Source: Nitrospirota bacterium | GTDB taxonomy: Bacteria > Nitrospirota > Thermodesulfovibrionia > SZUA-242 | Reading direction: 5' to 3' | NCBI GenBank assembly: GCA_027021335.1 | Contig: JALUUO010000108.1 | Span: 17,383-81,382 of the forward strand | DNA length: 64,000 nucleotides | In this document: positions 17,778-61,865 of the stretch, in pieces | How positions within the stretch are numbered: the stretch's first letter is position 1 | Layout of the letters: each line of letters opens with the position of its first letter | The notes under the pieces: generated by a model | Database searches by the model: none | What the model was told of the DNA's origin: nothing | The model's input: the letters and a program-made list of their open reading frames with translations, nothing else | Position numbers and translations under genes: made by a program

Positions 17778-17854
17778 ATTTCCTTATTTAACCAGCTTAT
17801 CCGGTATTTATTAGATACTTAGAGCAAACAAATTGGTTCGAATATGCCCACTTT

Positions 17855-19492: not shown

Positions 19493-19691
19493 GATACTCC
19501 TCCAAGGTTTTCTTAAGAAAATATGCTACTCAATACAGTATCCGGCTGTCAAAAATAAATCTAAACATTGAAAGGTAACCCTCTGCAAATACAAATAGAT
19601 AGGAAAAACTTTCCTATGTTGAACATGGCTATCGAACAAATTTCCTACCTCCTTGCATGGAAGATTTTGTAAAACAGAGCATGTATGGCCA

Positions 19692-19707
19692 TGGTATGGA
19701 GCTTGCT
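19692..19707 (+). promoter_or_regulatory. Sigma-54 promoter of the flgF-flgJ rod/ring operon
   Basis: TGGTATGGAGCTTGCT against the consensus TGGCACG-N4-TTGCW. All core GG/TTGC positions are present. It lies 39 nt upstream of the flgF ATG, with SD GGAG in between. Confidence 0.6.
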
Positions 19708-19745
19708 TTGTCAAAAGCAGACAGAAATAAAGCGGAGTTTGGATT

Positions 19746-20462: not shown

Positions 20463-20563
20463 GTTTTTTTATTCAAGTTCAGCAGCGTTATTGCTCAACT
20501 TGGATTTCATTAAATCTTGCTTGAACTGGAACTTTAAAACTTAACAACAAGGAGATTGTCAGA

Positions 20564-21352: not shown

Positions 21353-21360
21353 GCGGAAAA

Positions 21361-22101
21361 ATGCGTTCGGTAAAATTGCAAACGTTGAGTTTTTTAAAGA
21401 TCATTTACGTGGTAATTATTTTTTTGGGTCTCCCTGTTATCTTACCTCCGAATATAGCGTTGGCTGTTGATATCACTGAATCCGTACGCCTGGCTATTGA
21501 AGAAAGCATTGCGGATTCCTCCGAATGGGAGAGAGTCGAGGTTTCCGGAATAAGATTGAAACCCGGCATTAGCCTTTCTAATAATCCGGCTGGTGATCCG
21601 GTTATCGAAGTTGTAGAAATCCTTCCTTCAAGGCCTCTTGGCCGTAGAAACTTCCAGATGCTTGCAAGGTTTGACGATAACGAAAAACACTTTCGTGCCA
21701 GCGCTGTTGTAAAAGCTTATAGACGTGTTTTCTATCTTACCCGTTCACTATACAAAGGACAGCCGGTCGCTAAGTCTGACATCGTCAGCCGGGAGATGGA
21801 TGTAAGCAGAGTTCCCAAAGGCGCTTTGTCTGACCCATCCGAACTCGAGGGGCTGGTTGCTTCACGCTCCATCGGAATAAACAGAGTACTCAAGCTTTCC
21901 TATTTCAAAGAGCTTCCAGCGGCCAGAAAGGGAAGCCGTGTGCTCCTTGTGGCTGACAACGGCCCGGTTAAAGTTGCGGTTCCAGGAATTCTTAAAGAGG
22001 ATGCATATAAGGGACGCTCTGTAAAGGCAATGAACATAATGTCCAGAAAGGAGGTTGTAGGATGGCTTGTAGACGCCGGTACAGTAAGTATCAGATTTTA
22101 A
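21361..22101 (+). CDS. flgA: Flagellar P-ring assembly chaperone FlgA
   Basis: Signal/TM N-terminus and a SAF-type C-terminal domain (KGSRVLLVADNGPVKVAVPGILKEDAYKGRSVKAMN). Position is between flgG and flgH. Confidence 0.8.
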   Translation: MRSVKLQTLSFLKIIYVVIIFLGLPVILPPNIALAVDITESVRLAIEESIADSSEWERVEVSGIRLKPGISLSNNPAGDPVIEVVEILPSRPLGRRNFQMLARFDDNEKHFRASAVVKAYRRVFYLTRSLYKGQPVAKSDIVSREMDVSRVPKGALSDPSELEGLVASRSIGINRVLKLSYFKELPAARKGSRVLLVADNGPVKVAVPGILKEDAYKGRSVKAMNIMSRKEVVGWLVDAGTVSIRF

Positions 22102-22802
22102 GACTTTTTGCCGCACTCTGCCTCTTCACGATACCGGTCCTTACAGGATGCAGCGGTTTAAAAGAGGCGCGAATTATAAAGAAACAACCTATGCCTCCCA
22201 GGTATTACCCTATTCAGAAACCACCGGCACAAGCTTCTGCAGGTTCACTTTGGAGGGGTAGCAGCGAAGGGCTCTTCCATGACAACAGGGCAAGAAACCT
22301 GAACGACCTGGTGACAATAAAAATAGTAGAGAGCGCTAAAGGCGCAAAAACTGCAACTACTGATACCGAAAGAACAACATCGGACGATCGCTCGGTAACA
22401 AGCCTTTTCGGTCTGCCACTTAACCTTACTATGAGAGATTTCCTGGGAGCTGGCAACTCATTTGCGCCGGAGGTCAAAGGAGGTGTACAGACTCTGCTTG
22501 AAAGCGACGCCGAAACAACCAGGGGAGGAACCCTGACAGCATCCATCACCGCTAAGGTGGCAGAGGTGCTCCCAAATGGAAACTTCGTGCTCGAAGCGCG
22601 TAAAGAAACCCTTATAAACAACGAAAACCAAATTCTTGTTCTGCGGGGTATTGTCAGACCCCTGGATATCCGGCCGGACAATACCGTATTGTCCACCTAT
22701 ATCGCCGATGCCAAAATTTCTTTTACAGGCGAGGGAGTTCTTGATGATCAGCAAGCGCCTGGCTGGATGACCAGGATTCTGGATCATGTCTGGCCATTTT
22801 AA
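22062..22802 (+). CDS. flgH: Flagellar L-ring lipoprotein FlgH
   Basis: Lipobox VLTGC. Motifs LFHDNRARNLNDLVTIKIVE and ILVLRGIVRPLDI. ATG 22062 is preceded by AAGGAGG and overlaps the flgA end by 40 nt. Confidence 0.9.
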   Translation: MACRRRYSKYQILRLFAALCLFTIPVLTGCSGLKEARIIKKQPMPPRYYPIQKPPAQASAGSLWRGSSEGLFHDNRARNLNDLVTIKIVESAKGAKTATTDTERTTSDDRSVTSLFGLPLNLTMRDFLGAGNSFAPEVKGGVQTLLESDAETTRGGTLTASITAKVAEVLPNGNFVLEARKETLINNENQILVLRGIVRPLDIRPDNTVLSTYIADAKISFTGEGVLDDQQAPGWMTRILDHVWPF

Positions 22803-22853
22803 TGAGTTGTGAGTTGAGAAGTAAGGGGTATTTAAAAGATAAAGGAAATTGTC

Positions 22854-23972
22854 ATGAAAATCATGAAAATATTGTCAGATAGTGCAACTACGTTTTTTCT
22901 GTTGATTATTGGTTTTTTCCTACTATTGACTTCGGCCTCATATGCCGAAAGGTTAAAAGACATTTCGACCATATCGGGTGTCCGTGACAACCAGCTTGTG
23001 GGCTACGGCCTGGTGGTCGGCCTAGACCGCACAGGTGATAAGTCCGGCAGTGTAAGGCAGGCGTTATCTAATATGTATCAGAGGGCAGGAATAAATATCG
23101 ATGCTGCCAGGCTTAAGCCTAAAAACGTTGCAGCGGTAATGGTGACCGCTGATATGCCTACCTTCAGTAAATTGGGAAGCAGGCTGGATGTTATAGTTTC
23201 TTCACTGTCGGATGCAAAAAGCCTTCAGGGCGGCACTCTTCTTATGACACCGTTAAAGGGTCCGGACGGCAATGTTTATGCGGTGGCTCAGGGAGCGGTC
23301 TCGATCGGCGGATTTGCAGGCGGCAGCGGCGGCGAAACAGTAACCAAAAACCATCCAACCGTCGGCCGAGTGCCCTCAGGAGCATTGATAGAAAAAGAGG
23401 TTCCTATCAGCTTCGCTGATATGTCAAGCATCGATATTGTGTTGTATACCCAAGATTTCAAAACAGTGCAATCCGTTATCAAAAAAATAGATGAAGCGCT
23501 CCAGGGAACTTATGCCACAGCCGAAGGACCAAGATCAGTTAACGTGCAGGTTCCGGCTGACTATCAAGGCCGGGTGGTGGATCTTCTTGCTCTTCTTGAA
23601 ACTGTCGAGGTCGAGACTGATATGCCCGCAAAAGTTGTGATAAATGAGAAGACAGGTACGGTGGTTCTTGGAGATCGTGTTACTGTTTCTCCTGTGGCCT
23701 TATCCCACGGAAACCTGATCGTACAGGTAAAAACAACACTCGAAGTATCCCAGCCTACGGCTTTGAGCAATACCGGTCAGACCGCTATCGTCCCTGATAC
23801 AGAAACCACTGTAGTAGAGACCGATACCCGCCTTGTTCCCGTAGGCGGCGCCGACCTGAGCGAAGTTGTTAGTGCTTTGAACTCCCTGGGTGTAACTCCA
23901 CGTGACTTGATAGCAATACTTCAGGCACTGAAAGCTGTGGGAGCCCTGAAGGCTGAACTGGAGATTCTATGA
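22854..23972 (+). CDS. flgI: Flagellar P-ring protein FlgI
   Basis: RLKDISTISGVRDNQLVGYGLVVGLDRTGD ... LIAILQALKAVGALKAELEIL. Confidence 0.9.
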   Translation: MKIMKILSDSATTFFLLIIGFFLLLTSASYAERLKDISTISGVRDNQLVGYGLVVGLDRTGDKSGSVRQALSNMYQRAGINIDAARLKPKNVAAVMVTADMPTFSKLGSRLDVIVSSLSDAKSLQGGTLLMTPLKGPDGNVYAVAQGAVSIGGFAGGSGGETVTKNHPTVGRVPSGALIEKEVPISFADMSSIDIVLYTQDFKTVQSVIKKIDEALQGTYATAEGPRSVNVQVPADYQGRVVDLLALLETVEVETDMPAKVVINEKTGTVVLGDRVTVSPVALSHGNLIVQVKTTLEVSQPTALSNTGQTAIVPDTETTVVETDTRLVPVGGADLSEVVSALNSLGVTPRDLIAILQALKAVGALKAELEIL

Positions 23973-24352
23973 TGACAGGAATGAAACTGATATCCGGACT
24001 GGTTTCCCCTCTAGTTGCCGGTTCTACTGATAAGGCTGTTTCCGAAACCGGAAAAAACCGTGATGAGATTAAAAAAGCGGCAACACAATTTGAGAAACTC
24101 TTTATATCTCAAATCCTAAAAGAGATGAAAAAAACGATACCAGGCGAAAGTTTTCTGCCTCAAGGGCTTGGAAACGATATTTATGAGTCACTTATAGAAA
24201 ACGAACTTGCGGATTCACTGGCACAAAAGGGGATCGGCCTTGCAGATGCCTTTGAACGAATGCTTGAAGGCGGCATCGGGCGGATCAGTTATGATGACTC
24301 ACTAAGAAAAATAACCCAGCCTCATGAATCTGCGTATAAACAGAGCCCATAA
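23969..24352 (+). CDS. flgJ: FlgJ-like rod-binding protein (Rod_binding domain only, no muramidase domain)
   Basis: 127 aa. Rod-binding motif AATQFEKLFISQILKEMKKT. ATGA overlap with the flgI stop. Confidence 0.7.
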   Translation: MMTGMKLISGLVSPLVAGSTDKAVSETGKNRDEIKKAATQFEKLFISQILKEMKKTIPGESFLPQGLGNDIYESLIENELADSLAQKGIGLADAFERMLEGGIGRISYDDSLRKITQPHESAYKQSP

Positions 24353-24487
24353 CACATCATGGGTAAACATAGAAATATATGGTCGATAACCTGTGATTTT
24401 CCGTAGTGTTTTAGACACAGGCAGTGTCAATATACTGACTACATGTCTTGACTTTGACATGTAACCCATTGAACTTTTTAAATAAAT

Positions 24488-24514
24488 TTAAGTTTAAGCA
24501 ATACCTGCCGATAG
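24488..24514 (+). promoter_or_regulatory. Sigma-28-type promoter of flgM-flgN-flgK-flgL
   Basis: TTAAGTTT-N11-GCCGATAG against the consensus TAAAGTTT-N11-GCCGATAA. Lies 30 nt upstream of the flgM ATG. Confidence 0.6.
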
Positions 24515-24544
24515 GTGTATTAAGCGTATAAAGGAGGAGCTACT

Positions 24545-24838
24545 ATGAAGATTCAAGGCAATAACCAGCTCCCGGAAGTCAGGGAACCTAACCTTCGGCA
24601 GGCGGAAGAAAAGAGCGGGACGGAAAAAACCTCTTTACCACAGGACGACTCTGTCAGAATATCTTCCGGGGCCAAAGAGGCTCAAAAGATCATGGCGGAA
24701 GTCGAAAAAGCACCGGATATACGGGAAGACAAGGTTCGCGAACTCAAGACAGCCATTGATGCAGGAACTTACAACGTCAGCGGCGAAGCAGTGGCTGAAA
24801 AAATGATCAAGGAGTTTATGCTTGGAACAATCATCTAA
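24545..24838 (+). CDS. flgM: Anti-sigma-28 factor FlgM
   Basis: 97 aa. C-terminal FlgM domain REDKVRELKTAIDAGTYNVSGEAVAEKMI. Confidence 0.8.
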   Translation: MKIQGNNQLPEVREPNLRQAEEKSGTEKTSLPQDDSVRISSGAKEAQKIMAEVEKAPDIREDKVRELKTAIDAGTYNVSGEAVAEKMIKEFMLGTII

Positions 24839-25304
24839 CCCGAAATCCGGCCTGAAGGAGCTGGCTTGCATACTGGAAGAGGAATTCCGGTTGTGTAATG
24901 AGTTTGAAGAAGCGCTCATGCAGGAACGGGACCACCTTCAAAACTCACGTGCAATGGATGTAGAGAATATCTCAACAAAAAAAAACAATCTGAAAAACCG
25001 CTTCGTAGCAGTTGAAAGCAAAAGACGAAAACTCATCAGATCGTTAGCTGAGGAGGTGGGCATTTCACCCGACTCTCCACTTTCAGAAATATCCATGCAT
25101 TTACCCTGCAACGAATCTGATCGCCTCAACGAAACAGGAGAGAAGCTTAAATCCCGTATTGTCCGCCTGCGCGAACTTAATCGCGTAAACGAATCCATTA
25201 TAGAAAAAATACTGTTCTATCTTCGCGCCTCGGCAGGTTTTTTAAACCTCCATACCGGAGGCCTGGCACGCACATCAGGTAGAATCGTCTCAAAGGAAGT
25301 TTAG
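24822..25304 (+). CDS. flgN: FlgN-like flagellar export chaperone (for FlgK/FlgL)
   Basis: 160-aa helical protein between flgM and flgK. N-terminus LKELACILEEEFRLCNEFEEALMQERDHL is FlgN-like. Putative TTG start overlaps the flgM end. Confidence 0.6.
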   Translation: MEQSSNPKSGLKELACILEEEFRLCNEFEEALMQERDHLQNSRAMDVENISTKKNNLKNRFVAVESKRRKLIRSLAEEVGISPDSPLSEISMHLPCNESDRLNETGEKLKSRIVRLRELNRVNESIIEKILFYLRASAGFLNLHTGGLARTSGRIVSKEV

Positions 25305-25309
25305 TTTAG

Positions 25310-26668
25310 ATGAGCCTAAGCGCCCTATTTGATATCGGTAAATCGGCCCTGATAAGCAGCCAGGCTGCACTTAGCGTAACAGCCAACAACGTGGCCAATG
25401 TCAACACCCCCGGCTACAGCCGGCAAGATGTAAAACTCGGATCGATGGCGCCACAGTTGGTGGGCGGAGAATGGATAGGCAGGGGTGTGAATATCGTTGC
25501 AATTGAGCGCAATTACAATGCATTTATTGACACCCAGATAAACAATGAAACATCCAGCCAGGGCATGTACGACAGCAAGTCTTCAGTATTAAGCCAGGTA
25601 GAGGATATTTTTAACGAAACGCAATACGGCTTATCAGGAGCCATGCAGGACTTTTTCAATGCCTGGAACGAAGTGGCTGCCAACCCTGAGGAGCGCGCTC
25701 AACGTGTAACCCTTCTAGAGTCTTCCGGAGCGCTGGCCTCCCGCTTTCAAAGTATGAACACCAGGTTGCTGGATCTCCAGCAAAACATAAACCGTGAGAT
25801 TCCGGTAGTAGTAAACGACGTCAATAAAATCATAAAGTCTATCTACGATCTAAACTTGCAAGTGACGGTCACCGGTGGAGCGTCTGACACCCTTGACCAA
25901 CGTGACCAGATGATCAATCGTCTGGCAGAGTATGTTTCACTAAACAAGTTTGAGGATAGCATTGGCCGTGTAACTGTTATTGTTGAGGGCAAAAACCTGA
26001 TTGAACCCAACACCTACAACACCATTTCCGCCCAAGCCGGAACAGACGGGATGTACGATGTTGTAATGTCGGACACAGGCGAAACGCTTAACCTCCAGAA
26101 CTCATCCGGTGGCATCATCAAAGGGATGCTCGATCTTCGTGATGTTGAGCTGCAAAATTACCGGGATAACCTGGACACTCTGGCCTACAATCTTGCTGTT
26201 GAGGTCAATACGGTACACAGCGGCGGCTATGCTTTAGACGAAACCACCGGGCGAAATTTCTTTACGCCCCCAACAACCGTTACCGGAGCGGCCGGAAGCC
26301 TGACAGTAGCAATTTCAGATCCTAATCTGGTAGCTGCCTCGTCCAGTCCAAATGAGCTGCCCGGCAACAATTTACAAGCACAGGCTATTTCAGACCTGCA
26401 AAGCCAGGCACTGGTTTCAGGCAGCACATTTAGCGATTACTACCGCTCATTGGTGAGCCAGGTCGGAATCGATACCGCCTCCGCCTCAAGAGAACTCGGC
26501 AGCTCACAGTCCGTTCTTTTTCAACTCAAGGGAAAACGTGATGAGTTCGCAGGTGTGTCCCTGGACGAAGAGGCCGTAAACATTGTCCGTTTTCAGCGCT
26601 CTTATGAAGCGGCCGCAAAAATCATTAAGGTTACCGAGGATCTGTTCAACACAATAATTAATATGTAA
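25310..26668 (+). CDS. flgK: Flagellar hook-associated protein 1, FlgK
   Basis: N-terminus SALISSQAALSVTANNVANVNTPGYSRQ and C-terminus GVSLDEEAVNIVRFQRSYEAAAKIIKV. Confidence 0.9.
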   Translation: MSLSALFDIGKSALISSQAALSVTANNVANVNTPGYSRQDVKLGSMAPQLVGGEWIGRGVNIVAIERNYNAFIDTQINNETSSQGMYDSKSSVLSQVEDIFNETQYGLSGAMQDFFNAWNEVAANPEERAQRVTLLESSGALASRFQSMNTRLLDLQQNINREIPVVVNDVNKIIKSIYDLNLQVTVTGGASDTLDQRDQMINRLAEYVSLNKFEDSIGRVTVIVEGKNLIEPNTYNTISAQAGTDGMYDVVMSDTGETLNLQNSSGGIIKGMLDLRDVELQNYRDNLDTLAYNLAVEVNTVHSGGYALDETTGRNFFTPPTTVTGAAGSLTVAISDPNLVAASSSPNELPGNNLQAQAISDLQSQALVSGSTFSDYYRSLVSQVGIDTASASRELGSSQSVLFQLKGKRDEFAGVSLDEEAVNIVRFQRSYEAAAKIIKVTEDLFNTIINM

Positions 26669-26682
26669 CAGGAAAATAAATC

Positions 26683-28245
26683 ATGCGCATTTCCAACAAC
26701 ATAATGTATGAGAAGTTTCTTCTTAATATTAGAAGCAATGTCAATTCCATATACCGGGAACAGGAAAAAGTAGGCTCTGGAAAAAGAATCAACAGGCTGT
26801 CGGATGATCCCGTGGGCAACTACAAGGCTATGGATTTGCGTGACCGAATTCGTTTGATAGAACAATACCAGAAAAATGCTAATGAATCCGAGACCATTCT
26901 TACGGCGTCGGAAACAGCCGTAAGCGGTGCACAAGAAACAGCCGGCAGGGCTTCCGATCTGGTTCTTCAGTATGCAAACGGAACCTGGACGGCTGAAGAC
27001 AGGCTTAACGGAGCAAAGGAAATACAGGAGATCAGAAATGAAATTGTAAACCTGGCCAATAAAAAAGTGGGGTCCAGATATATCTTTGGCGGGTACCTTA
27101 CCGACGCTCCACCTTACACTGAAACCCTGTTAATCAGAACCGGCGTGAATGACCAGATAGTATTCGATGCCGGAAGCGGTGATATCACAGTTACCCTTCA
27201 ACCAGGAGTGTACACCCCTGAGCAGCTAAACCAGGAAGTAAAAACAAGACTTGAAGCGGCAAATGGCTCGGCAGATACTTACGCTGTAAGCTTCAACTAT
27301 TCTACTGATAAATTCGAGATATCAAATAATACCGGCAATGCTAACAGCATTATTCTTAGGTGGTCGGATGCAGGCTCTACAGCAGCTTCTACACTTGGAT
27401 TTGATGCGGTAGACGATTCTGTGCCCGCCGGATCTTCAGCTGTGGCCGACAATGCCGTCACATTTGAGCGTGGGTTTGTTGTAACCACATCCAACAATGT
27501 CTTCATGGCGGACCTCGGCGATGGCGACGGCATAGCAGCGGTTACACTTACGGCAAACACCTACACACCTACGGAACTTGCCGCCGAAATTAAAACGCAA
27601 CTTGAGGCGGAAGATGGCGATGCAGGAAACACCTATTCGGTTACCTATAACTCAACATCACAGATATTCAATATTACTAATGATGCCGGAAATAACGCGG
27701 TTACTTTCGCATGGACCAACGCAGGAACCACAGCAGGAAGCCTGTTGGGGTTCTCCACAGACGTTACACTTAACGAAGGAGAGACGGCACAAAGCGATAC
27801 GCTTGTTGAGCTTTCCAGCCGATACGTGTACCAGGGAGACTCTGGTAATATTGAGATAGAAGTTGCAAACGGTGTCAGCGCTACTATCAACATACCAGGC
27901 GACAGTGTTTTTGATCCAATTCTTACAGCCATGGATGGGTTTATCGCTTCGATGAACGGGAACAACATAACCGGCATAAACGATTCCATCAACAATATAA
28001 GAAACGGAGATCAGGCACTGCTCGATGCCAGAGCTACAATAGGTGCCAGATTAAACAGGATTGAACAGGAGGGTATAAGGATGGATGAGGAGTTTGTGGT
28101 TGTTAAAGCTTCCCTTTCCAATATCGAAGACACTGATATAGTCGCAAGCGTAGTAGAAATATCCAAGCGGGAAGCTTCGATGGAGGCACTTAGGATGACC
28201 GGCTTTCAAATGCTAAGCAAATCGCTGTTTGATTTTCTAAGATAA
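26683..28245 (+). CDS. flgL: Flagellar hook-associated protein 3, FlgL (enlarged, with a tandem inserted domain)
   Basis: Flagellin-like N-terminus SGKRINRLSDDPVG and C-terminus ARATIGARLNRIEQ...DTDIVASVVEISKREASMEALRMTG. Two homologous inserts of about 88 aa lie at aa 156-241 and 271-358. Confidence 0.85.
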   Translation: MRISNNIMYEKFLLNIRSNVNSIYREQEKVGSGKRINRLSDDPVGNYKAMDLRDRIRLIEQYQKNANESETILTASETAVSGAQETAGRASDLVLQYANGTWTAEDRLNGAKEIQEIRNEIVNLANKKVGSRYIFGGYLTDAPPYTETLLIRTGVNDQIVFDAGSGDITVTLQPGVYTPEQLNQEVKTRLEAANGSADTYAVSFNYSTDKFEISNNTGNANSIILRWSDAGSTAASTLGFDAVDDSVPAGSSAVADNAVTFERGFVVTTSNNVFMADLGDGDGIAAVTLTANTYTPTELAAEIKTQLEAEDGDAGNTYSVTYNSTSQIFNITNDAGNNAVTFAWTNAGTTAGSLLGFSTDVTLNEGETAQSDTLVELSSRYVYQGDSGNIEIEVANGVSATINIPGDSVFDPILTAMDGFIASMNGNNITGINDSINNIRNGDQALLDARATIGARLNRIEQEGIRMDEEFVVVKASLSNIEDTDIVASVVEISKREASMEALRMTGFQMLSKSLFDFLR

Positions 28246-28468
28246 ATTATAAAATTAAATTATATAAACTCACCGCAAAGACGCAAAGAGATCAAAGTTT
28301 TATCACCCAAAGACAGCTCTTTAAAATCCATCCTCAAGAGTGGTAAGATTTTAAAACAAGAATATCTATTAAATTTTTATTTTTTGAGATCTTTGCCTCT
28401 TTGCACTTATCTATTGTTTTTTAGTTTTAATGTAAGCGCCAAGGAGCAGGTCCAACCAGGAGGGTGGC

Positions 28469-52742: not shown

Positions 52743-53324
52743 CTACTCAACCGTGAGGGTAGCTTCCTCGACAATCACATCATAGGTATAGCCTGCGCCA
52801 AGATCTTTATTGATCACCACGGTACCTGCCACCAGCACAATATCTCCCACATTAACAGTATCACTGGTGGTGACCGTAAGATCATTAGTGCCACTGGCCG
52901 CTTCACCAGTGCCATCTTGCAGGTGAACCCAGTTTCTACCCATAATCATGGGTGAAAATTTCATAACCTTGCCTCGAACGGTAATCTTTTTACCCTCCAG
53001 CTTATCCTTGTTAGCAAAAATATCTCCAATAGTACCGCTGTCAGCTTTTTCTATGCTTCCGGCAGCCGGAGCCGATATGCCGTTAACTGTCTTCTTGAGT
53101 GGCGGATGTTCTTTAATTACTGTTTCGGATGTCGCAGGCGGGGCCTGATTTTCAGTGGACGGCGGTGGCGTAGGAGCTTCCTTCAGTGCAGGGCCTTTGT
53201 CGGAACAACCTATAAATACAACCAATGTAGATGCTGCAAGCATCAACCCTAATATGCTTTTCACAAGAATCCTCCTTAACTCTACGGTTTCGGTGAGAAT
53301 AACATATCTGAGCACCTGCTTCAA
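52743..53324 (-). CDS. Lipoprotein of unknown function (possible OB-fold C-terminal domain)
   Basis: Lipobox VFIGC, a Pro/Thr-rich linker, and a C-terminal about 90-aa beta-rich domain (KITVRGKVMKFSPMIMGRNWVHLQDG). Confidence 0.45.
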   Translation of the reverse strand: MKQVLRYVILTETVELRRILVKSILGLMLAASTLVVFIGCSDKGPALKEAPTPPPSTENQAPPATSETVIKEHPPLKKTVNGISAPAAGSIEKADSGTIGDIFANKDKLEGKKITVRGKVMKFSPMIMGRNWVHLQDGTGEAASGTNDLTVTTSDTVNVGDIVLVAGTVVINKDLGAGYTYDVIVEEATLTVE

Positions 53325-54084: not shown

Positions 54085-54419
54085 ATTTTATTATACCTAA
54101 TCGTATTATGAAATATGCGTCCGTCAGAACATTCATCTCCCCATAACCGGTTTTTAAAATCCGAGCAAGTGGACTTGCAGACAGTTATGAAACCCAACAG
54201 AGTATGTAGTCTATTCCATAACTTAAGAAACTATATTGATGCTCAAATAAAAAGTCGGCAAACTGTTTCCATAACTTGATGCCTGGCAGCCATAGATCAG
54301 CATGAACGTTAAAGGTAGGTGGTGCCAACGCACTTGACCTCCTGTAGATGCATGTGTCTTTATATCAACAAAGTAAATTTAGTGCTTTTTTGCCTAAAGA
54401 CCACTAAGATAGTGGAGTA

Positions 54420-54830
54420 ATGAGTATGCAACCTATGGAAATAGTTCTTGCGAAGTATAATTACTGGATCTATGTCCTTTTGATGATGATCGGACTGTAT
54501 GCCATGTTGTCCAAAAACAATCTGGTAAAAAAGATCATTGGAATGAGCGTGTTTCAAGCTGCGATTATGGTTTTCTACGTCTCTATCGGAGCAAAACAAG
54601 GCGCTACAATTCCAATTATCGAAGATGACCCCATTACCGGGCATATTCATGAAGCTGCCGCGCAAACAATTAATGCAATGCACTATGTTAACCCGCTACC
54701 CCATGTGCTGATGCTTACCGCTATTGTGGTTTCAGTAAGCACACTTGGAGTGGCACTTGCTATCATAATCGGAATTCATAAACAATACGGCACAATTGAG
54801 GAAGATGAAATCCTGGAGCAGATACGATGA
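54420..54830 (+). CDS. MrpC/MnhC (NuoK-like) cation:proton antiporter subunit with an inserted loop
   Basis: 136 aa. The N-terminal helices and NPLPHVLMLTAIVVSVSTLGVALAII match MnhC/NuoK. An extra loop of about 25 aa (PIIEDDPITGHIHEAAAQTINAM) is present. Confidence 0.75.
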   Translation: MSMQPMEIVLAKYNYWIYVLLMMIGLYAMLSKNNLVKKIIGMSVFQAAIMVFYVSIGAKQGATIPIIEDDPITGHIHEAAAQTINAMHYVNPLPHVLMLTAIVVSVSTLGVALAIIIGIHKQYGTIEEDEILEQIR

Positions 54831-56332
54831 CACCTTCTGAGCAGCTACCGATTCTGTTGGTAATAACACCTCTTCTTTTTACTCTGGCAGTAAGTATCGC
54901 CGGGTGGTTTAATAGAAAAATCTGCTATCCGATTACCATTATCACCCTTAGCGCCTCTTTATATATATCGGTAGCCCTGTTGTTACAGGTAGTTAAAAAC
55001 GGAGAGATTCATTATCACCTTGGTGGATGGCAGCCACCTTTCGGTATTGAATACGTAGTTGATCACCTAAACGCACTGGTTCTTGTCGTCATATCCTTTG
55101 TTGCCCTGGTTTCTGCTGTCTACTCAAAAGAAAGTGTTAAGCAGGAGTTACCGGACAAAATACCGCAATTCTATACTCTGTATCTTATGCTTGTAACAGG
55201 GCTTCTTGGAATGACTGTCACAGGAGATGCATTTAATCTCTATGTTTTAATCGAGATATCAGCGATTACAACATATGCATTAATAGCCATAGGAAAAGAT
55301 AGAGCTTTGATTTCCAGTTTTAACTACGTTATCATGGGCACAATGGGTGCGTGCTTTTACTTATTGGGTGTGGGCCATCTATACATCATGACAGGTTCCT
55401 TAAACATGATGGATCTTTATAAGATTCTACCACCTCTTTATTCTTCCCATGCGATTTTTGTATCTTTTATCTTAATCCTGGTAGGACTATGGGCCAAGAT
55501 GGCTTTTTTCCCGCTACACGAATGGCTTCCAAACGCATACACCTATGCGCCTTCCGCGGCAAGCTGTCTTATTGCTCCACTTATGACAAAGGTTTCGATC
55601 TACGTTATGATCAGAATCATGTTTTCCATCTTCTCACCAGCCTTTGTATTTGAAGCTTTTACCGCACATAACATCATTATATGGATGGCGGCTGCCGCCA
55701 TCGCAGGCGGCTCAATTCTGGCACTGGCACAGACAGACTTTAAGAAAATACTGACCTACATGATTGTGGCCGAGGTCGGATATATGGTCGGCGGCGTATG
55801 GCTGGCCAACCGCCTTGGAATTACAGGCGCTGTTTTACATATTCTAAATGATGCACTCATGACTTTGTGCCTGTTTCTGGCGGCTGGAATAATCGTCTAC
55901 AAGACAAAGGGCCATAAGCTCGAAAACCTTAGGGGCCTTTACAGGAAAATGCCGGTAACCATGGGGGCCTTTACGGTAGGAGCTTTATCCATGATCGGAG
56001 TTCCGCCGACAGCCGGTTTTTTCAGTAAATGGTACCTGATTTCAGGCGCTATTGATGCAGGACATTGGGGTTTTATGGCCGCTCTCATCTTTTCCAGCCT
56101 GGTTAATGCGGTCTTGTTTTTCCGTATGATAGAGGTTGGTTACTTCGAGCCATTCAGGGATAACCAGGAGGAGCATGATCACAATACCGCCCTATCGCCT
56201 AAAATTGACGAAGCGCCTCTTAGCATGCTTGCGCCTCTTGTAATTGTCTCTATAAGTTTAATAGTGGTTGGTATTTACACCGGCGATATTGTGGATAGCA
56301 TTATCAGGTTTACCGTGCCGGCAGGCATATGA
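54827..56332 (+). CDS. MrpD/NuoN-type antiporter-like subunit 1 (Proton_antipo_M family)
   Basis: TM5 Glu (YVLIEISAITTY), TM7 Lys/His motif WAKMAFFPLHEWLPNAY, and TM12 Lys in GVPPTAGFFSKWY. 4-nt overlap with the MrpC-like gene. Confidence 0.8.
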   Translation: MTPSEQLPILLVITPLLFTLAVSIAGWFNRKICYPITIITLSASLYISVALLLQVVKNGEIHYHLGGWQPPFGIEYVVDHLNALVLVVISFVALVSAVYSKESVKQELPDKIPQFYTLYLMLVTGLLGMTVTGDAFNLYVLIEISAITTYALIAIGKDRALISSFNYVIMGTMGACFYLLGVGHLYIMTGSLNMMDLYKILPPLYSSHAIFVSFILILVGLWAKMAFFPLHEWLPNAYTYAPSAASCLIAPLMTKVSIYVMIRIMFSIFSPAFVFEAFTAHNIIIWMAAAAIAGGSILALAQTDFKKILTYMIVAEVGYMVGGVWLANRLGITGAVLHILNDALMTLCLFLAAGIIVYKTKGHKLENLRGLYRKMPVTMGAFTVGALSMIGVPPTAGFFSKWYLISGAIDAGHWGFMAALIFSSLVNAVLFFRMIEVGYFEPFRDNQEEHDHNTALSPKIDEAPLSMLAPLVIVSISLIVVGIYTGDIVDSIIRFTVPAGI

Positions 56333-56382
56333 ACCAAACCTTACTTATTTTATTTCTTTAATTCCTCCAAAAATAACCGCAA

Positions 56383-56412
56383 TTAACTAAAATTAATGAT
56401 CAAAGGTATAAT
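56383..56412 (+). promoter_or_regulatory. Possible internal sigma-70 promoter ahead of the CBS/permease genes
   Basis: TTAACT-N18-TATAAT in the 127-bp gap inside the Mrp-like cluster. Confidence 0.3.
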
Positions 56413-56459
56413 AAAAAGCCAAATCAACAGGATTGCTGCACTAAGGAGACAAGAAAACA

Positions 56460-56951
56460 GTGTTAAAAAAAGTAAGTGATGTCATGGAGCCGATTATTGA
56501 TACCGTCTCTCCTGATACAACTGTGAAAAACGCTATCATGCAAATGAGAGTAGCCACCCGTAAACCGGGCATTTACGGGGTAAAAGGTATTATAGTTCTC
56601 GATGCAGACGGAAAAGTTATAGGGTTGCTTTCAGTTAGAGACATATTGCGTTCTATTTTACCGGAATATATGATGGAACGCACTGAATTTGGAAGCCTTT
56701 CCTGGCCTGGCATGTTTGAACATATGGCTAATAAAATCTCTGAAAAAACCGTAGGCGAAATCATGTCGAAAGAAGTTATAACTATTTCCCCGGAGGCAAC
56801 ACTTATGGAGTGTGCCGTTTTGCTGATAAAACATAACCTTTGGCGCCTTCCGGTTGTAACCCCGGACAACCGCCCTCTTGGTATGGTTTATCTTCGGGAT
56901 CTTCACTACGCAATTGTCGATAGTATTCTAGAAACGGAGACTGATAAATAA
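56460..56951 (+). CDS. CBS-pair domain protein (stand-alone sensor)
   Basis: Two CBS motifs (VSDVMEPIIDTVSPDTTV...VLDADGKVIGLLSVRDIL and VGEIMSKEVITISPEATL...RLPVVTPDNRPLGMVYLRDL). The TAA stop is immediately followed by the permease ATG. Confidence 0.8.
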   Translation: MLKKVSDVMEPIIDTVSPDTTVKNAIMQMRVATRKPGIYGVKGIIVLDADGKVIGLLSVRDILRSILPEYMMERTEFGSLSWPGMFEHMANKISEKTVGEIMSKEVITISPEATLMECAVLLIKHNLWRLPVVTPDNRPLGMVYLRDLHYAIVDSILETETDK

Positions 56952-58325
56952 ATGACAGAAGCGCCTGCGCCGGAAACACAGGAATTTGTAATGAATGGAC
57001 AGTTCTGGACTGCTACAGCTCTGTTCATTCTAATGTATGTTGCCATAGTCACCGAAAAAATCGATAAAACCGTAGTTGCCATCTTCGGAGCCGGTCTTGT
57101 TCTTATATTAAAAGTTCTTGACCAGCATGATGCTTTTCATACCGAGGCGTTCGGGATTGATTGGAACGTGATCTTTCTTCTGATTTCGATGATGACAATC
57201 GTTAACCTGATTAGGCCAACCGGCCTATTTGAATATGTGGCTATCAAAAGCGCTAAGTGGGGACGGGGTGAGCCGCTTAGAATCATGCTGATTTTTGCGG
57301 TAATCACAGCCGTTTTCAGCGCGCTTCTTGATAATGTTACCACAGTCCTGCTGCTTGCCCCGGTAACTCTGTTTATTGCAGACGCCCTTGAGGTAGACCC
57401 TGTACCATTTCTAATCGTCGAAGCCCTTGCCTCGAACATAGGCGGCACAGCAACACTCATCGGTGATCCACCAAACATTATGATCGCCTCAAAGGCAAAA
57501 CTGGACTTCATGTCATTTGTAACAAACCTGGCGCCGGTTGTTGTTATCATGATGATAGTATTTCTTATCGTGGTACGCCTTTTATTCAGCAAACATCTCT
57601 CTGTGTCTCAGGAGCTAAAAGAGCGCATCCTAGCCATGGACGAACGATCCGCCATTAAAGATAAGGCTATGCTTTTCAAGGGTCTTTTTGTATTAACCTT
57701 GGTTCTTATCGGTTTTGTTTTTCACGGCATTTTTCATTACCAGCCCGCAAGTATTGCGCTCTTTGGAGCCGGCCTGCTTCTTGTTATTTCCAATACCCGC
57801 CATCCTCACAAAATTCTGGCGGAAATTGAGTGGCCGACAATCTTCTTTTTTATGGGGCTGTTCATTGTGATAGGAGGAGTGGTTAAGGTTGGACTTATAA
57901 AATTGATTTCAGCCAAGGTCCTGGCCCTCACCGAAGGAAACCTGCTCAACACAAGCATGCTTGTAATGTGGTTTTCAGCCGTTGCTTCAGCATTTGTGGA
58001 CAACATTCCATACGTGGCCACTATGAATCCGCTTATTATCAATATGGCGCATCATCTCTGGCCAGACCTTCAGGGCACTGCTCTTCTTCACCATCCGGAT
58101 CTAATGCCTCTTTGGTGGTCCCTGGCGCTCGGCTCCTGCCTTGGCGGCAACGGAACTGCTATTGGAGCTTCGGCTAATGTAATAGTTGTGGGAATGGCTG
58201 AACAAAACGGAAAAAAGATCTCGTTTCTACGGTTTATGGCATACGGATTCCCTATTATGTTGCTCACAGTTGCTATTTCTGCGGTTTATGTCTGGCTTAG
58301 GTACTATGTATTCCAAGCACTCTAA
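56952..58325 (+). CDS. ArsB/NhaD-superfamily (IT superfamily) permease
   Basis: 457 aa with about 11-13 TMs. Motifs FSALLDNVTTVLLLAP and IGGTATLIGDPPNIMI, repeated as FVDNIPYVATMNP and LGGNGTAIGASANVIV. This is the inverted-repeat hairpin signature of the family. Confidence 0.8.
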   Translation: MTEAPAPETQEFVMNGQFWTATALFILMYVAIVTEKIDKTVVAIFGAGLVLILKVLDQHDAFHTEAFGIDWNVIFLLISMMTIVNLIRPTGLFEYVAIKSAKWGRGEPLRIMLIFAVITAVFSALLDNVTTVLLLAPVTLFIADALEVDPVPFLIVEALASNIGGTATLIGDPPNIMIASKAKLDFMSFVTNLAPVVVIMMIVFLIVVRLLFSKHLSVSQELKERILAMDERSAIKDKAMLFKGLFVLTLVLIGFVFHGIFHYQPASIALFGAGLLLVISNTRHPHKILAEIEWPTIFFFMGLFIVIGGVVKVGLIKLISAKVLALTEGNLLNTSMLVMWFSAVASAFVDNIPYVATMNPLIINMAHHLWPDLQGTALLHHPDLMPLWWSLALGSCLGGNGTAIGASANVIVVGMAEQNGKKISFLRFMAYGFPIMLLTVAISAVYVWLRYYVFQAL

Positions 58326-58369
58326 GTATTTAAAAAAATCTTAGCGGTAAATCAGAATAAACTAAATTC

Positions 58370-59854
58370 ATGAACACTATTGTATCGATCAAACCACTGT
58401 TTGCGATTCTTGTCTCACTGCTTGCAGTCATACCTATAGTGTTTTCAAGATCAAGTCCAAACCTTCGGGAATTCTGGACGTTTGCAGCAGGCATAATTAA
58501 ATTCTCTATAGTTGCCTCGATGATTCCAACGATTTTAGATGGGTCCTTGATTGAATATACCCTGGCCGAAGTTCTCCCCGGTATTGCCATAAAGTTCAGG
58601 GTGGATTCTCTGGGCCTTCTTTTTGCCCTGGTTGCATCCGGTCTCTGGATTGTTACATCCGCATACTCCGTAGGCTATATGCGCGGCCTGAAAGAGCATA
58701 GCCAGACACGTTATTTCTCGTTTTTCGCGTTGGCCCTTTCTGCGACAATAGGCGTGGCTTTTTCGGCCAACCTCTTAACCCTTTATCTATTCTATGAAAT
58801 GCTGTCATTGGCGACCTATCCTCTTGTCACCCATCACCAGGATACTGAAGCCCGTTCATCCGGCAGGAAATATCTCACTTACATTTTAGGCACATCCATA
58901 GCATTTGTTCTGCCTGCCATGCTGATCACTTATAACCTGTCAGGAACTCTGGAATTTTCGAACCAGGGTTTTTTCACTGCAGAAGCAGCGCCAAAAACCA
59001 CGATAGCAGCTCTTCTTGTTATATTTGTTTTCGGTTTTGCAAAAGCCGGCATTATGCCTTTTCATTCATGGCTGCCGGCAGCCATGGTAGCCCCAACTCC
59101 GGTAAGTGCTCTTTTACATGCTGTTGCCGTTGTCAAGGTGGGAGTTTTTTCTATATTTCGTGTCGTAACAGGTGTTTTTGGGGTTGACTTACTGCAGTCC
59201 CTCGACCTGGGAACAGTCCTGGCATATGTTGCATCATTTACGATAATTATGGCTTCACTGATCGCTCTTTCACAGGATAGCCTGAAAAGGCGCCTGGCTT
59301 TTTCAACAATCGGACAGCTCTCTTATATCGTCCTTGGAGCCGCTCTTCTTTCGCCCAAGAGCATGACCGGCGGCATGATGCATATTGGAATGCACGCATT
59401 TGGTAAAATCACACTTTTTTTCTGTGCCGGCGCAATATTCGTCGCTACAGGCAAGAAAAATATAAGTGAGATGGTCGGAATCGGGCGAAGAATGCCGATT
59501 ACGATGTTTGCATTTTTTATCGGATCGCTGAGTGTTATCGGCCTGCCCCCAACAGGGGGTTTTTTAAGCAAGTGGTACCTGGTGCTGGGAACCATAGAAG
59601 CTGATCAGTTACCTATGCTGTTTGTGCTTTTAGGCAGCTCTCTGCTTAATGCAGCATATTTCTTCCCTATATTTTATAAAGCCTTTTTCTGCACTACGGA
59701 AGAATCTTTATTCGAAAACAGGATGAATGAGGCCCCGGCCTGGTGTATAGCTCCCCTGGTGCTGACTTCAGCTGTTTCCATCCTGTTGTTTTTTTATCCG
59801 CAACCGTTTCTCGGCCTGGCCGGCCTGGCGGTGCAGAATATAACTGGAGGATAA
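58370..59854 (+). CDS. MrpD/NuoM-type antiporter-like subunit 2
   Basis: TM5 Glu (LYLFYEMLSLATY), TM7 FAKAGIMPFHSWLPAAMVAPTPVSALLHA, and TM12 GLPPTGGFLSKWY. Confidence 0.8.
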   Translation: MNTIVSIKPLFAILVSLLAVIPIVFSRSSPNLREFWTFAAGIIKFSIVASMIPTILDGSLIEYTLAEVLPGIAIKFRVDSLGLLFALVASGLWIVTSAYSVGYMRGLKEHSQTRYFSFFALALSATIGVAFSANLLTLYLFYEMLSLATYPLVTHHQDTEARSSGRKYLTYILGTSIAFVLPAMLITYNLSGTLEFSNQGFFTAEAAPKTTIAALLVIFVFGFAKAGIMPFHSWLPAAMVAPTPVSALLHAVAVVKVGVFSIFRVVTGVFGVDLLQSLDLGTVLAYVASFTIIMASLIALSQDSLKRRLAFSTIGQLSYIVLGAALLSPKSMTGGMMHIGMHAFGKITLFFCAGAIFVATGKKNISEMVGIGRRMPITMFAFFIGSLSVIGLPPTGGFLSKWYLVLGTIEADQLPMLFVLLGSSLLNAAYFFPIFYKAFFCTTEESLFENRMNEAPAWCIAPLVLTSAVSILLFFYPQPFLGLAGLAVQNITGG

Positions 59855-59857
59855 AGC

Positions 59858-60112
59858 ATGGAGGAAGAAGAAAAAAAAGAATCCCACCTTCTCTACCAAC
59901 CCGGTGTAATAAGAAAGCTCTGGATTATGCTGTATCTGATTTGCGGGTTGACTTTAGTTCCTGAATTTTTTATAGAAAGAGAACCTCATTTTGGAATTGA
60001 TGCCTATTTCGGTTTTTTTGCGTTACTTGGATTTGCCTCGTGTATTGTTTTAATCATGATAGCTAAGGCCGGTGGAATTGTGCTTAAAAGGAAAGAGGAT
60101 TACTATGACTGA
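59858..60112 (+). CDS. Small two-TM membrane protein of the Mrp-like cluster
   Basis: 84 aa with an acidic N-terminus (MEEEEKKE) and two hydrophobic helices. Starts 3 nt after the preceding gene. Its stop overlaps the next gene's ATG. Confidence 0.5.
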   Translation: MEEEEKKESHLLYQPGVIRKLWIMLYLICGLTLVPEFFIEREPHFGIDAYFGFFALLGFASCIVLIMIAKAGGIVLKRKEDYYD

Positions 60113-61865
60113 TTTTCCACCTGCATGGTTTTTGATACTAGGCTCCCTGCCGGTTCCTTTTTTTAAAGGGAATTTAAAGAACTGGTATTTGATTTTTCTG
60201 ACAGCTGCGGCTTTCTACTTAATCTCCCAACTAAGTGCAGGGTCTTCTTGGCAGATACAATTTTCAGGTTTTAATCTTACCCTTTTACGCGTTGATAAAC
60301 TTAGCAAAATATTCGGCTATATATTCACATTGAATGCCTTTGCAGCCTTTATATATGCCTTTTACCTGAAAGACTCCACCCAGCATATTGCCGCGCTCTT
60401 CTATATAGGAAGCGCACTGGGCGCAGTCTTTGCCGGCGACTTGGTCTCACTCTATTTCTATTGGGAAGTAATGGCGGTTGCCTCCTCTTTTCTCATACTT
60501 TCGCGAAAAACCAGCAAGTCCATGAATGCCGGCATGCGATATATTTTAGTGCATATTTTCGGGGGCCTCTGCCTGCTTGCAGGTATTATTATCCATATAT
60601 CCTCCACCGGTTCGACTGATTTTAATACTATAACCGATCATAACATGGGAACCTACCTTATGTTGCTGGGTATCCTGGTTAATGCCGCGGCGCCTCCTCT
60701 TTCAGCCTGGCTTTCTGATGCTTACCCTGAGGCCACTGTAACAGGAGGAGTTATTTTAAGCGCCTATACAACAAAAACAGCCGTCTATACCTTGATCAGG
60801 GGGTTTCCCGGCTGGGAAATATTAATTGTTGTCGGATGTGTTATGACAATCTACGGCATTATTTATGCTCTTCTTGAAAATGATATGCGGCGCATTCTTG
60901 CTTACAGCATTATCAATCAGGTTGGATTCATGGTTACAGGCATCGGAATCGGAACAACCATGGCATTAAACGGCGCAGCCGCCCATGCATTTGCCCATAT
61001 TATATACAAGGCACTACTCTGGATGTCTGCCGGCTCGGTTCTATACATGACAGGTAAAAGCAAGTGCACCGAGCTTGGAGGACTTTATAAAACAATGCCA
61101 TGGACCCTGCTGTTTGGAGTTATAGGAGCCCTTGCTATATCGTCTTTTCCAGGAACCAGCGGTTTTACAACCAAGTCTCTTATCATTAAAGGAGCAATTA
61201 ATGAACACCTGACATGGGTCTGGCTTGTTCTTGAGATCGCCTCAGCCGGTGTATTTCTGCATGCGGGAATTAAGTTTCCTTATTTTGTCTTTTTTGCAAA
61301 AGATAGAGGTTTACGTCCTGGTGAAACCAATAAGCCTATGCTTATTGCAATGGGATTTATGGCATTTCTTTGTATCTTCATAGGCATTTATCCCAAAATT
61401 CTTTACGATATCCTGCCGTTTGATATGAAGTATTACCAGGCCTATACTGCTGTGCACGTCACTACTCAGCTTCAGTTACTGATGTTTTCAGCTTTGGTTT
61501 TCTTCCTTCTTCTTTCTCTTCTTAAACGAACAGAAACCATTGCGGTAGATACCGACTGGTTTTACCGTAAGGGAGGCCGCATCTTTTATAGCGTCATGGA
61601 TAAAGGTTTAAACGGGCTGAACAACGCGGCGGACAAGTTTTTTGTAAAAGGAATTACAGGTTCTATTATTCGTTTTTCCCAAAATGCTCCGGCCAGCATA
61701 ATGCTGCTTTTTTTCATACCATACTGGTCTATCATCGGCCTTGATCCTGCAAAGAAAGCCGCAAGAAAGGAGAAGCTCTACAGGAGTTTTAGCGCCGGCG
61801 CTCTTTCGGTGGGGTTAATATCTATTTCGGTAACTCTCTATCTGTGTATACTGTTTTTCGTCTAA
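60105..61865 (+). CDS. Divergent NuoL/MrpA-like antiporter-like subunit 3 with C-terminal extension
   Basis: Proton_antipo_M core (YFYWEVMAVASSF; GFTTKS). The TM7 motif is degenerate (LVNAAAPPLSAWLSDAY). About 100-aa C-terminal extension ends in a TM. ATG 60105 follows SD AGAGGA and overlaps the upstream stop. Confidence 0.75.
   Translation: MTDFPPAWFLILGSLPVPFFKGNLKNWYLIFLTAAAFYLISQLSAGSSWQIQFSGFNLTLLRVDKLSKIFGYIFTLNAFAAFIYAFYLKDSTQHIAALFYIGSALGAVFAGDLVSLYFYWEVMAVASSFLILSRKTSKSMNAGMRYILVHIFGGLCLLAGIIIHISSTGSTDFNTITDHNMGTYLMLLGILVNAAAPPLSAWLSDAYPEATVTGGVILSAYTTKTAVYTLIRGFPGWEILIVVGCVMTIYGIIYALLENDMRRILAYSIINQVGFMVTGIGIGTTMALNGAAAHAFAHIIYKALLWMSAGSVLYMTGKSKCTELGGLYKTMPWTLLFGVIGALAISSFPGTSGFTTKSLIIKGAINEHLTWVWLVLEIASAGVFLHAGIKFPYFVFFAKDRGLRPGETNKPMLIAMGFMAFLCIFIGIYPKILYDILPFDMKYYQAYTAVHVTTQLQLLMFSALVFFLLLSLLKRTETIAVDTDWFYRKGGRIFYSVMDKGLNGLNNAADKFFVKGITGSIIRFSQNAPASIMLLFFIPYWSIIGLDPAKKAARKEKLYRSFSAGALSVGLISISVTLYLCILFFV

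Follow-up and report, generated by a model that had tools for sequence, protein, structure and literature searches.

A truncated Group 3 Mrp-like locus with a CBS-permease module at its D1-D2 junction in a Thermodesulfovibrionales-like clade

Overview

We analyzed a stretch of 64,000 nt from a Nitrospirota bacterium (the window; assembly GCA_027021335.1, contig JALUUO010000108.1, positions 17,383 to 81,382 of the forward strand) and therein a locus of seven genes, i.e., four Mrp-like subunit genes (C, D1, D2 and D3), a gene for a small protein of 84 aa with two transmembrane (TM) helices (S84) and, between D1 and D2, the genes of a CBS-pair protein and a permease (Table 1). The ancestor of the locus was a complete Group 3 Mrp operon, of which the locus no longer contains the 5' half with the Na+ module and the junction subunits (E, F, G and MbhD/E/MnhB). 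At the D1|D2 junction, an autonomous CBS-permease unit is inserted, and all genes in the block are under purifying selection. The explanation that we favour, with modest confidence, is a split or truncated Group 3 Mrp operon with a nested, co-transcribed and mechanistically independent transporter, the missing subunits probably being encoded elsewhere.

An earlier note on the same stretch, made from the letters alone, had described seven co-directional genes with their spacings, overlaps and domains, which agrees with the gene coordinates and the Pfam assignments. It had also proposed that the antiporter-like trio drives ion movement through the permease in place of the Na+ module, and that the CBS protein gates this transport; the coupling is not supported by the comparisons reported below. 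Its remark that the architecture is not a described system is in accordance with our literature search, in which no paper describing an Mrp arrangement with NhaD/ArsB and CBS was found. The note had also pointed to Desulfobacterota for a survey of gene neighbourhoods; the organism itself belongs to Nitrospirota (Thermodesulfovibrionales-like), with a SecA that shows 70-74% identity to named Nitrospirae proteins. Parent operon and transporter module are each of known kinds; what is new, within a genus-level clade, is that they are interleaved and that the locus has lost the Na+ module.

Orthology to the Group 3 Mrp operon family

For the comparison, one genome per GTDB species was scanned for relatives of D3 (535), and 80 loci were retrieved and compared; retrieved loci are denoted by L numbers. 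The D3 family is large and slowly evolving, with best non-self matches of 72-78% identity across phyla. Within the 80 loci, D3 is 52-78% identical to that of the window, and the phyla covered include Desulfobacterota, Nitrospirota, Verrucomicrobiota, Acidobacteriota and Actinomycetota; Syntrophomonadaceae are represented as well. The core C-D1-D2-S84-D3 is common to the retrieved loci, with S84 between D2 and D3 in almost all of them. The window shows the same order of these five genes and also the same overlaps within C-D1 and D2-S84-D3. Upstream of C, the relatives encode MnhE, MrpF, MrpG and one to three MbhD/MbhE/MnhB genes (PF01899, PF04066, PF03334 and PF13244+PF20501+PF04039, respectively), and E, F, G and B are all found there in 54/54 loci with at least 3.5 kb visible upstream. 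D1 and D2 are separated by at most 72 nt in 61 of the 66 loci with both genes (the gap is larger in five). That is, the Mrp-like genes of the window are orthologues of the widespread Group 3 operon mnhE-mrpF-mrpG-mbhD/E/mnhB-mrpC-D1-D2-S84-D3.

The window departs from this family in two respects: E, F, G and B are not immediately upstream of C, and D1 does not adjoin D2, from which it is separated by an insertion of 2,037 nt. No CBS+permease-like pair was found between D1 and D2 in any of the 66 orthologous clusters carrying both genes outside the clade described below.

Group 3 Mrp operons are known to have no full mrpA and multiple mrpD copies (PMC8415708; PMC5703873). The architecture MrpEFGBCD1D2D3 has been annotated in Verruconatronum alginivorum (PMC13274419), and a split form MrpEFGBBBCD + MrpDD, which also breaks at D1|D2, is recorded for NPL-UPA2 (PMC6305446). 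With these systems and the stand-alone mrpEFGBB'CD of P. furiosus, the window shares orthologous C, D1, D2 and D3 genes and the order and overlaps within C-D1 and D2-S84-D3. It differs by being without MnhE, MrpF, MrpG and MbhD/MbhE/MnhB and by the 2-kb foreign transporter pair between D1 and D2.

Four Desulfobacterales loci (L011 1-5777, L012 881-6425, L019 3127-10838 and L021 787-8321) carry a permuted Mrp operon with its break exactly at D1|D2, the order being D2-S84-D3, response regulator, Usp, long MnhE, MnhB, F, G, MbhD, small open reading frame (ORF), C and D1. Breaks at D1|D2 recur in this operon family, and it is at this junction that the window insertion is located.

Interleaved arrangement in the sister lineage

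The arrangement C-D1-CBS-permease-D2 was found, whole or in part, in five further contigs from other samples (L087, L088, L089, L090 and L176). Compared to the window, the amino acid identity of the sister lineage is 86-93% for C, 89% for D1, 78% for CBS, 89% for the permease and 90% for D2. The sister flanks differ from those of the window, i.e., a Crp-family regulator gene is found upstream and an opposite-strand gene directly after D2, with no S84-D3. An assembly chimera is ruled out, as the D1-CBS-permease-D2 junctions recur in five other assemblies.

The interleaving is found only in this genus-level Thermodesulfovibrionales-like clade. With regard to the question raised by the earlier note, whether the CBS+permease pair is kept inside orthologous clusters, the answer is thus twofold: the pair is kept in the sister lineage in a different genomic context, while it is missing from the 66 clusters outside the clade. 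Such an absence, which the note had named as refuting its hypothesis, thus holds outside the clade. Within the clade, the arrangement recurs in the sister lineage under purifying selection and is neither a one-off assembly artefact nor a decaying insertion.

In the sister population, S84-D3 is located on a different contig from C-D1-CBS-permease-D2. The locus L177 146-2150 (JGI 3300001390, contig SMAR1_100021, from the same sample as L088) carries S84-D3 next to Dfx-SecA, in the place syntenic to the window. Its S84 and D3 are only 33% and 56% identical to those of the window (flanking genes: 82-92%), and D3 is changed at 28 of the 157 family-invariant positions, where invariant denotes at least 95% conservation in the family. 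This divergence may reflect either fast evolution after the detachment or a replacement by a foreign copy. Gene dispersal is tolerated in the clade, given the detached S84-D3 of the sister population.

Mrp subunits missing from the locus

A tblastn search of the 64-kb window with more than 200 E/F/G/B proteins of related operons found no homologue (best E-value 0.037). Neither the gene calls over contig positions 8,770-90,468 of 93,122 (~82 kb) nor the 10 kb on either side of the sister loci contain an E, F, G or B gene. The respective domains of MrpB (PF04039 MnhB, PF13244 MbhD and PF20501 MbhE) as well as those of MrpE, MrpF and MrpG (PF01899, PF04066 and PF03334) are found in none of the seven proteins, the window tblastn or the contig-flank gene calls. 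Likewise, no PF00146 or other domain of NuoH, NuoA or NuoJ is present in the seven proteins or the flanking gene calls. The absences listed in the earlier note (MrpB/E/F/G nearby and NuoH/A/J) therefore hold over this wider range, and so does its reading of the flanks as a divergent pgl and an unrelated peptidyl-prolyl isomerase (PPIase), which are an opposite-strand Glucosamine_iso/pgl-type gene upstream of C and a SurA-type PPIase gene at the other side.

The same note had asked whether S84 or C-terminal extensions of the subunits might be MrpB/E/F/G homologues in disguise. For S84 and the C-terminus of D3 this is ruled out by hhalign probabilities of 0.1-6.8%. Pfam and PDB profile searches gave weak sub-threshold matches, and the relatives have S84 besides E/F/G/B.

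Measured against a complete Mrp antiporter of the cation:proton antiporter-3 (CPA3) type, the locus thus comprises MrpC and MrpA/MrpD-type subunits with the TM5 Glu and the TM7/8/12 Lys, while the MrpB domain(s), MrpE, MrpF and MrpG are missing from it. In the nearest outgroup (L085; C 84%, D1 77%, D2 78% and D3 78% identical), MnhB is found directly before C and D1 adjoins D2. Given this retention, the truncated state is derived and, on the scale of the family, recent.

Selection and residue conservation

We compared the window with the sister lineage at a synonymous divergence (dS) of 0.5-0.85 and used a pair of complete operons of similar divergence as control. The ratios of nonsynonymous to synonymous divergence (dN/dS) are 0.07 for C, 0.08 for D1, 0.15 for CBS, 0.07 for the permease and 0.07 for D2, and the respective values of the complete-operon pair are 0.07 (C), 0.09 (D1) and 0.07 (D2). 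All family-invariant positions are retained in D1 (82/82, including E143, K224, K255 and K401), D2 (126/126) and D3 (157/157), such that the antiporter-like Glu/Lys set (E143, K224/225, K255/256 and K401) is completely present in the window. C differs at two hydrophobic invariant positions (I44V and L51V) and retains the charged K37, K38, K59 and E128. In distances to outgroups, no rate acceleration was seen for the window's Mrp genes.

Given these dN/dS values, the invariant residues and the missing acceleration, we conclude that the Mrp genes are functional, under a constraint that matches that of complete complexes. Pseudogenisation is ruled out by dN/dS and residue retention, and a relaxed selection or rate increase after the loss of partner subunits was not seen.

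The CBS-permease pair as an autonomous module

The permease scores below all curated NCBIfam cutoffs (MamN 180/500, ArsB 106/415 and NhaD 65/577). That is, it is assigned neither to ArsB (105.9 vs 415 for TIGR00935 and 118.8 vs 457 for NF011980) nor to NhaD (64.7 vs 577.1 for TIGR00775 and 40 vs 80 for NF038006). Its best PDB match is ArsB (10tp, 6.8e-16). The closest solved relatives of the CBS protein are the archaeal nucleotide-binding CBS proteins MJ1225 and MJ0100. CBS-regulated transporters such as MgtE, ClC, CNNM/CorC and OpuA differ from the window, where the CBS pair is a separate polypeptide.

Homologues of the permease with 58-75% identity are abundant, mostly in Nitrospirota. We compared 80 metagenome loci of such homologues, whose identity to the window permease ranges from 58 to 93%. 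In 54/80 loci a CBS-pair gene is found directly upstream of the permease homologue, and in none do Mrp genes adjoin the pair. The window's CBS gene likewise lies directly upstream of an orthologous PF03600 permease and, as in the autonomous Nitrospirota pairs, is translationally abutted to it; the difference is that the pair of the window clade is embedded in an Mrp operon. CBS and permease form an autonomous two-gene module, which recurs next to GntR-TauE-x138-Usp.

The closest relative of the window permease (L172, 93% identical) is followed by an opposite-strand panD, with no D2 adjacent, and the nucleotide homology between L172 and the window extends no further than the CBS-permease module. 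Among 77 autonomous homologues, 191 positions are invariant; the window permease retains 185 of them, and its six changes are common to L172. Thus, there is no sign of a neofunctionalised permease.

In about nine loci (L104 173-4758; also L105, L118, L138 and L142), the permease homologue is the last part of a tight operon of GntR, CBS, a 505-aa DASS/CitMHS-type transporter, an LCIB-type beta-carbonic anhydrase (PF18599), a second CBS and the permease homologue. These operons may be a lead that the CBS+permease pair handles inorganic carbon or another anion. A literature search on LCIB, CBS and permease returned no useful paper.

Expression signals

Upstream of C, the window shares a non-coding block with L087, L088, L089 and L176 (37/41 nt identical), within a spacer that has otherwise diverged. 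A search of 170-odd loci allowing for up to 9 substitutions found the block only in the clade and upstream of no complete operon. Due to this clade-specific block, C is taken to head a unit that has a conserved control region of its own.

Within the D1-CBS spacer, a promoter candidate (TTAACT-18-TATAAT) shows 10/12 consensus matches, which is a consensus match only, and an AAGGAGA ribosome-binding site precedes the GTG start of CBS. The length of the spacer varies between lineages (127, 230 and 658 bp). The 658-bp spacer of L089 (7359-8016) contains an 86-aa zinc-finger ORF with a weak match to the MqsA antitoxin (E = 9e-4, below the Pfam cutoff), and the respective spacer of L087 holds a shorter remnant of this insert. 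The D1-CBS spacer thus appears to be an insertion hotspot.

The spacer between permease and D2 is short (44 bp), conserved in the sister lineage and free of terminator-like sites, and D2-S84-D3 is therefore presumably transcribed by read-through. No RNA element was found in the spacers or the 41-nt block at the Rfam threshold of E <= 1.

Locus layout and subunit assignments

Feature coordinates are collected in Table 1. C and D1 overlap by 4 nt and a gap of 127 bp follows D1; the TAA stop of CBS abuts the ATG of the permease at 56952, and the ATG of D3 at 60105 overlaps the stop of S84.

Table 1. Features of the locus (window coordinates).
Feature	Position	Strand	Description	Domain or remark
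C	54420-54830	+	MrpC/MbhG/NuoK-like subunit, 136 aa	PF00420, E = 6e-19
D1	54827-56332	+	antiporter-like subunit of true MrpD/MbsH type, 501 aa	PF00361
CBS	56460-56951	+	stand-alone CBS-pair protein, 163 aa	2 x PF00571, E = 5e-26
Permease	56952-58325	+	ion-transporter-superfamily protein (CitMHS/ArsB/NhaD-like), 457 aa	PF03600, E = 2.9e-88; PF02040
D2	58370-59854	+	antiporter-like subunit, 494 aa	PF00361 + PF00662
S84	59858-60112	+	two-TM small subunit, 84 aa	no Pfam family
D3	60105-61865	+	antiporter-like (MbsH'/MrpA-N-like) subunit, 586 aa, C-terminal extension	PF00361; NF009310
Conserved 41-nt non-coding block upstream of C	54332-54372	+	probably promoter or operator	contains TTGACC
Sigma-70-like promoter candidate for CBS-permease	56383-56412	+	in the D1-CBS spacer	consensus match only

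C, D2 and D3 clear the curated NCBIfam cutoffs of "Na+/H+ antiporter subunit D/C" equivalogs (NF005624 105.4/95, NF006236 685.5/663 and NF009310 712.9/564, respectively). Among the solved structures, the membrane subunits of the Pyrococcus membrane-bound sulfane reductase (MBS) and membrane-bound hydrogenase (MBH) rank first, followed by bacterial MrpA/MrpD. Best matches are MbsG for C (6U8Y_G), MbsH (6U8Y_H, 2.6e-61) and MrpD (7QRU_D) for D1, as well as MbsH' (6U8Y_X) and Dietzia MrpA for D3; D2 matches MbhH, NdhF, NuoL and MrpA. An AlphaFold2 (AF2) model of D3 (13-sequence alignment, mean predicted local distance difference test (pLDDT) score 53.6) predicts a helix of 62 residues (483-544) and, after it, two terminal helices; in this low-confidence model, the helix is consistent with a lateral helix of MrpA/NuoL type.

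With the Pyrococcus MBS/MBH membrane arm (6U8Y, 6CFW), the locus thus shares the counterparts of MbsG (C), MbsH (D1) and MbsH' (D3), in contrast to the hydrogenase/sulfane-reductase module, the NuoH-like MbsM and the MbsA-E equivalents, none of which it encodes. The complex I membrane arm differs by NuoH, NuoA and NuoJ. Group 1/2 Mrp systems (Bacillus, Anoxybacillus 6Z16, Dietzia 7D3U and B. pseudofirmus 7QRU) have in common with the window the MrpA/MrpD-type subunits with the Glu/Lys set and MrpC; the window differs in having no MrpA C-terminal/MrpB domain and no E/F/G, and it encodes three separate PF00361 proteins and the family-specific 84-aa subunit.

S84 is characterized by two TM helices, a C-terminal EDYYD motif and the conserved or invariant residues G58, F59, C62, K70 and K77. 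No significant Pfam or PDB match was obtained, and hhalign gave a probability below 7% for any likeness to E/F/G/B. Orthologues are found in more than 60 loci, and there are 819 matches at E <= 1e-3 among 50%-identity cluster representatives. S84 is an extra subunit that only this Mrp subfamily has.

The remaining gene content looks ordinary. Between argB and pgl, a 193-aa ORF (window 52743-53324, - strand) without a Pfam match combines an N-terminus of signal-peptide/lipoprotein type with a Pro/Thr-rich linker. The rest of the window (164-12000 and 13800-28300) holds type IV pilus tip genes, among them one for a PilY1-like protein of 1,735 aa (4202-9409), flagellar FliD, flagellins and FlgK, as well as RNase E/G, RtcB and purD/purE/argB. 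The contig upstream (L174 12039-13789) encodes a YeeE-type Sulf_transp protein and TusA. None of these is Mrp-related.

Discussion

In the explanation that we favour, MrpC, the three antiporter-like subunits and S84 would continue to form the proton-translocating part of an Mrp complex, with the missing E/F/G/B supplied from another locus. Such a supply in trans is most likely given that the constraint on the genes is unrelaxed and that the clade tolerates dispersed subunit genes. Transcripts that start at the promoter upstream of C, at that of the module or at both would run on into D2-S84-D3. The permease would act as an independent secondary transporter that is co-transcribed with, and not mechanically coupled to, the Mrp subunits. 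From its domain homology to MJ1225 and MJ0100, the CBS protein is predicted to regulate the permease in response to adenine-nucleotide-type ligands. The E. coli hyf operon with focB is a precedent for a secondary transporter gene that is co-transcribed with complex-I-like membrane subunits and whose product stays outside the complex. Operons of the hyf/formate-hydrogenlyase type are similar to the window in that a transporter gene stands beside complex-I-like genes, and differ in the transporter family and in the position of the gene at the end of the operon instead of within it.

Several observations weigh against this explanation. First, no E/F/G/B gene was found in the ~82 kb of the contig or within 10 kb of the sister loci, such that their supply in trans is inferred. 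Second, the five-gene block stayed together through a relocation that left S84-D3 behind, with all five genes under purifying selection; such cohesion and selection is also expected of a functional unit. Third, in L093 (9516-18675) a group-4 hydrogenase cluster of Hyf/formate-hydrogenlyase-like type begins 129 bp after CBS-permease; it encodes two PF00361 proteins (the first of 680 aa), NuoH-like and NuoK-like proteins between them, a fused 30/49-kDa large subunit and a small subunit of 20 kDa. Here the pair stands, for a second time and independently, beside a complex-I-like membrane module. Finally, a TauE/SafE permease and a conserved 138-148-aa protein without significant Pfam match are encoded directly upstream of complete Mrp operons in the Nitrospirota-like loci L082 (2376-3821) and L086 (1532-2977), and the same two genes adjoin CBS-permease in about nine loci (among L091-L099, L114 and L119); the TauE proteins are 68-80% identical between both contexts. 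A neighbourhood common to CBS-permease and complete Mrp operons hints at a functional relationship. It also implies an ancestral neighbourhood that is shared in the phylum, which makes a local rearrangement plausible.

An alternative that we consider unlikely, though not negligible, is a truly reduced complex, i.e., the clade lost MrpEFGB and MrpC-D1-D2, with or without S84-D3, is a stand-alone proton-conducting or pH-homeostasis module next to an independent permease. This is in accordance with the failure to find E/F/G/B in any of the clade sequence searched and with the clade-specific conserved block, which places C at the start of a unit. In the sister lineage, D3 too has apparently been separated, in a copy that diverged at the 28 invariant positions given above, and the Mrp complex of P. 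furiosus works with a single MrpD and no MrpA (PMC8415708), which speaks for a flexible subunit complement. On the other hand, all characterised Mrp complexes need an MrpB domain and E/F/G (PMC5703873, PMC8415708). Furthermore, the constraint on C, D1 and D2 equals that of complete operons and shows no acceleration, which is unexpected if partner interfaces had been lost before the split of the lineages.

The hypothesis of the earlier note, in which the antiporter-like subunits are physically or energetically coupled to an ArsB/NhaD-type permease that replaces the Na+ module and is gated by the CBS protein, is in our view improbable. What supports it are the retention of the five-gene block with its tight permease-D2 spacing in six contigs from different samples, the purifying selection on all five genes and the independent juxtaposition with a Hyf-type complex in L093. 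There is also a precedent for PF00361 proteins with non-Mrp partners, since in DabAB, MpsAB and the Cup proteins of NDH-1 (CupA) antiporter-like subunits can energise a non-canonical partner. That partner is a carbonic-anhydrase-like soluble protein, whereas the candidate in the window is a permease, and we know of no ion-transporter-superfamily permease that is a subunit of an Mrp or complex-I-type complex. Moreover, the pair is absent from 66/66 orthologous clusters outside the clade and autonomous in 54/80 loci, and the closest permease relative does without D2. No clade-specific change of the permease is absent from L172, and 185/191 of its invariant positions are kept. Finally, the pair is preceded by a promoter-like site of its own and by a spacer whose length varies and which in L089 hosts a toxin-antitoxin-like ORF.

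A broader form of this idea, to which we give similarly little credence, holds that MrpEFGB have been lost and that MrpC-D1-D2 (plus S84-D3 in the window lineage) suffice by themselves as a proton-translocating scaffold, with a functional coupling to the CBS-gated permease. The coupling could energise or balance Na+ or anion transport, with inorganic carbon as one candidate because permease homologues share operons with the LCIB-type carbonic anhydrase.

That the Mrp-like genes are non-functional leftovers of an insertion-disrupted operon is highly improbable: a stepwise erosion could be read from the seven genes of the window, the five of the sister lineage with its detached and fast-diverged S84-D3, and L172 with CBS-permease and no D2, but the reading frames are intact, dN/dS is 0.07-0.08 at a dS of ~0.5-0.8 and equal to that of complete operons, no invariant residue (the TM5 Glu and TM7/8/12 Lys among them) is lost from D1, D2 or D3, the conserved charged residues of C are retained, and the upstream 41-nt element is conserved.

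Overall, the arrangement is an unusual, selectively maintained rearrangement within one genus and not a demonstrably new machine. For annotators, two by-products are of use, namely a widespread, uncharacterised transporter module in Nitrospirota (CBS+permease) and a conserved, unannotated two-TM subunit of the Mrp subfamily (S84). If the missing subunits are encoded elsewhere, the locus is an ordinary but instructive operon split with a nested transporter, with the break of the Group 3 Mrp operon falling on a module boundary (E..C-D1 | D2-S84-D3). A coupled scaffold, if true, would be a new use of complex-I-type antiporter-like subunits. If the subunits are truly absent, the clade would provide a natural experiment in which MrpC and antiporter-like subunits are fully constrained without the Na+ module, and this would bear on the division of proton and sodium paths in Mrp, MBH/MBS and complex I.

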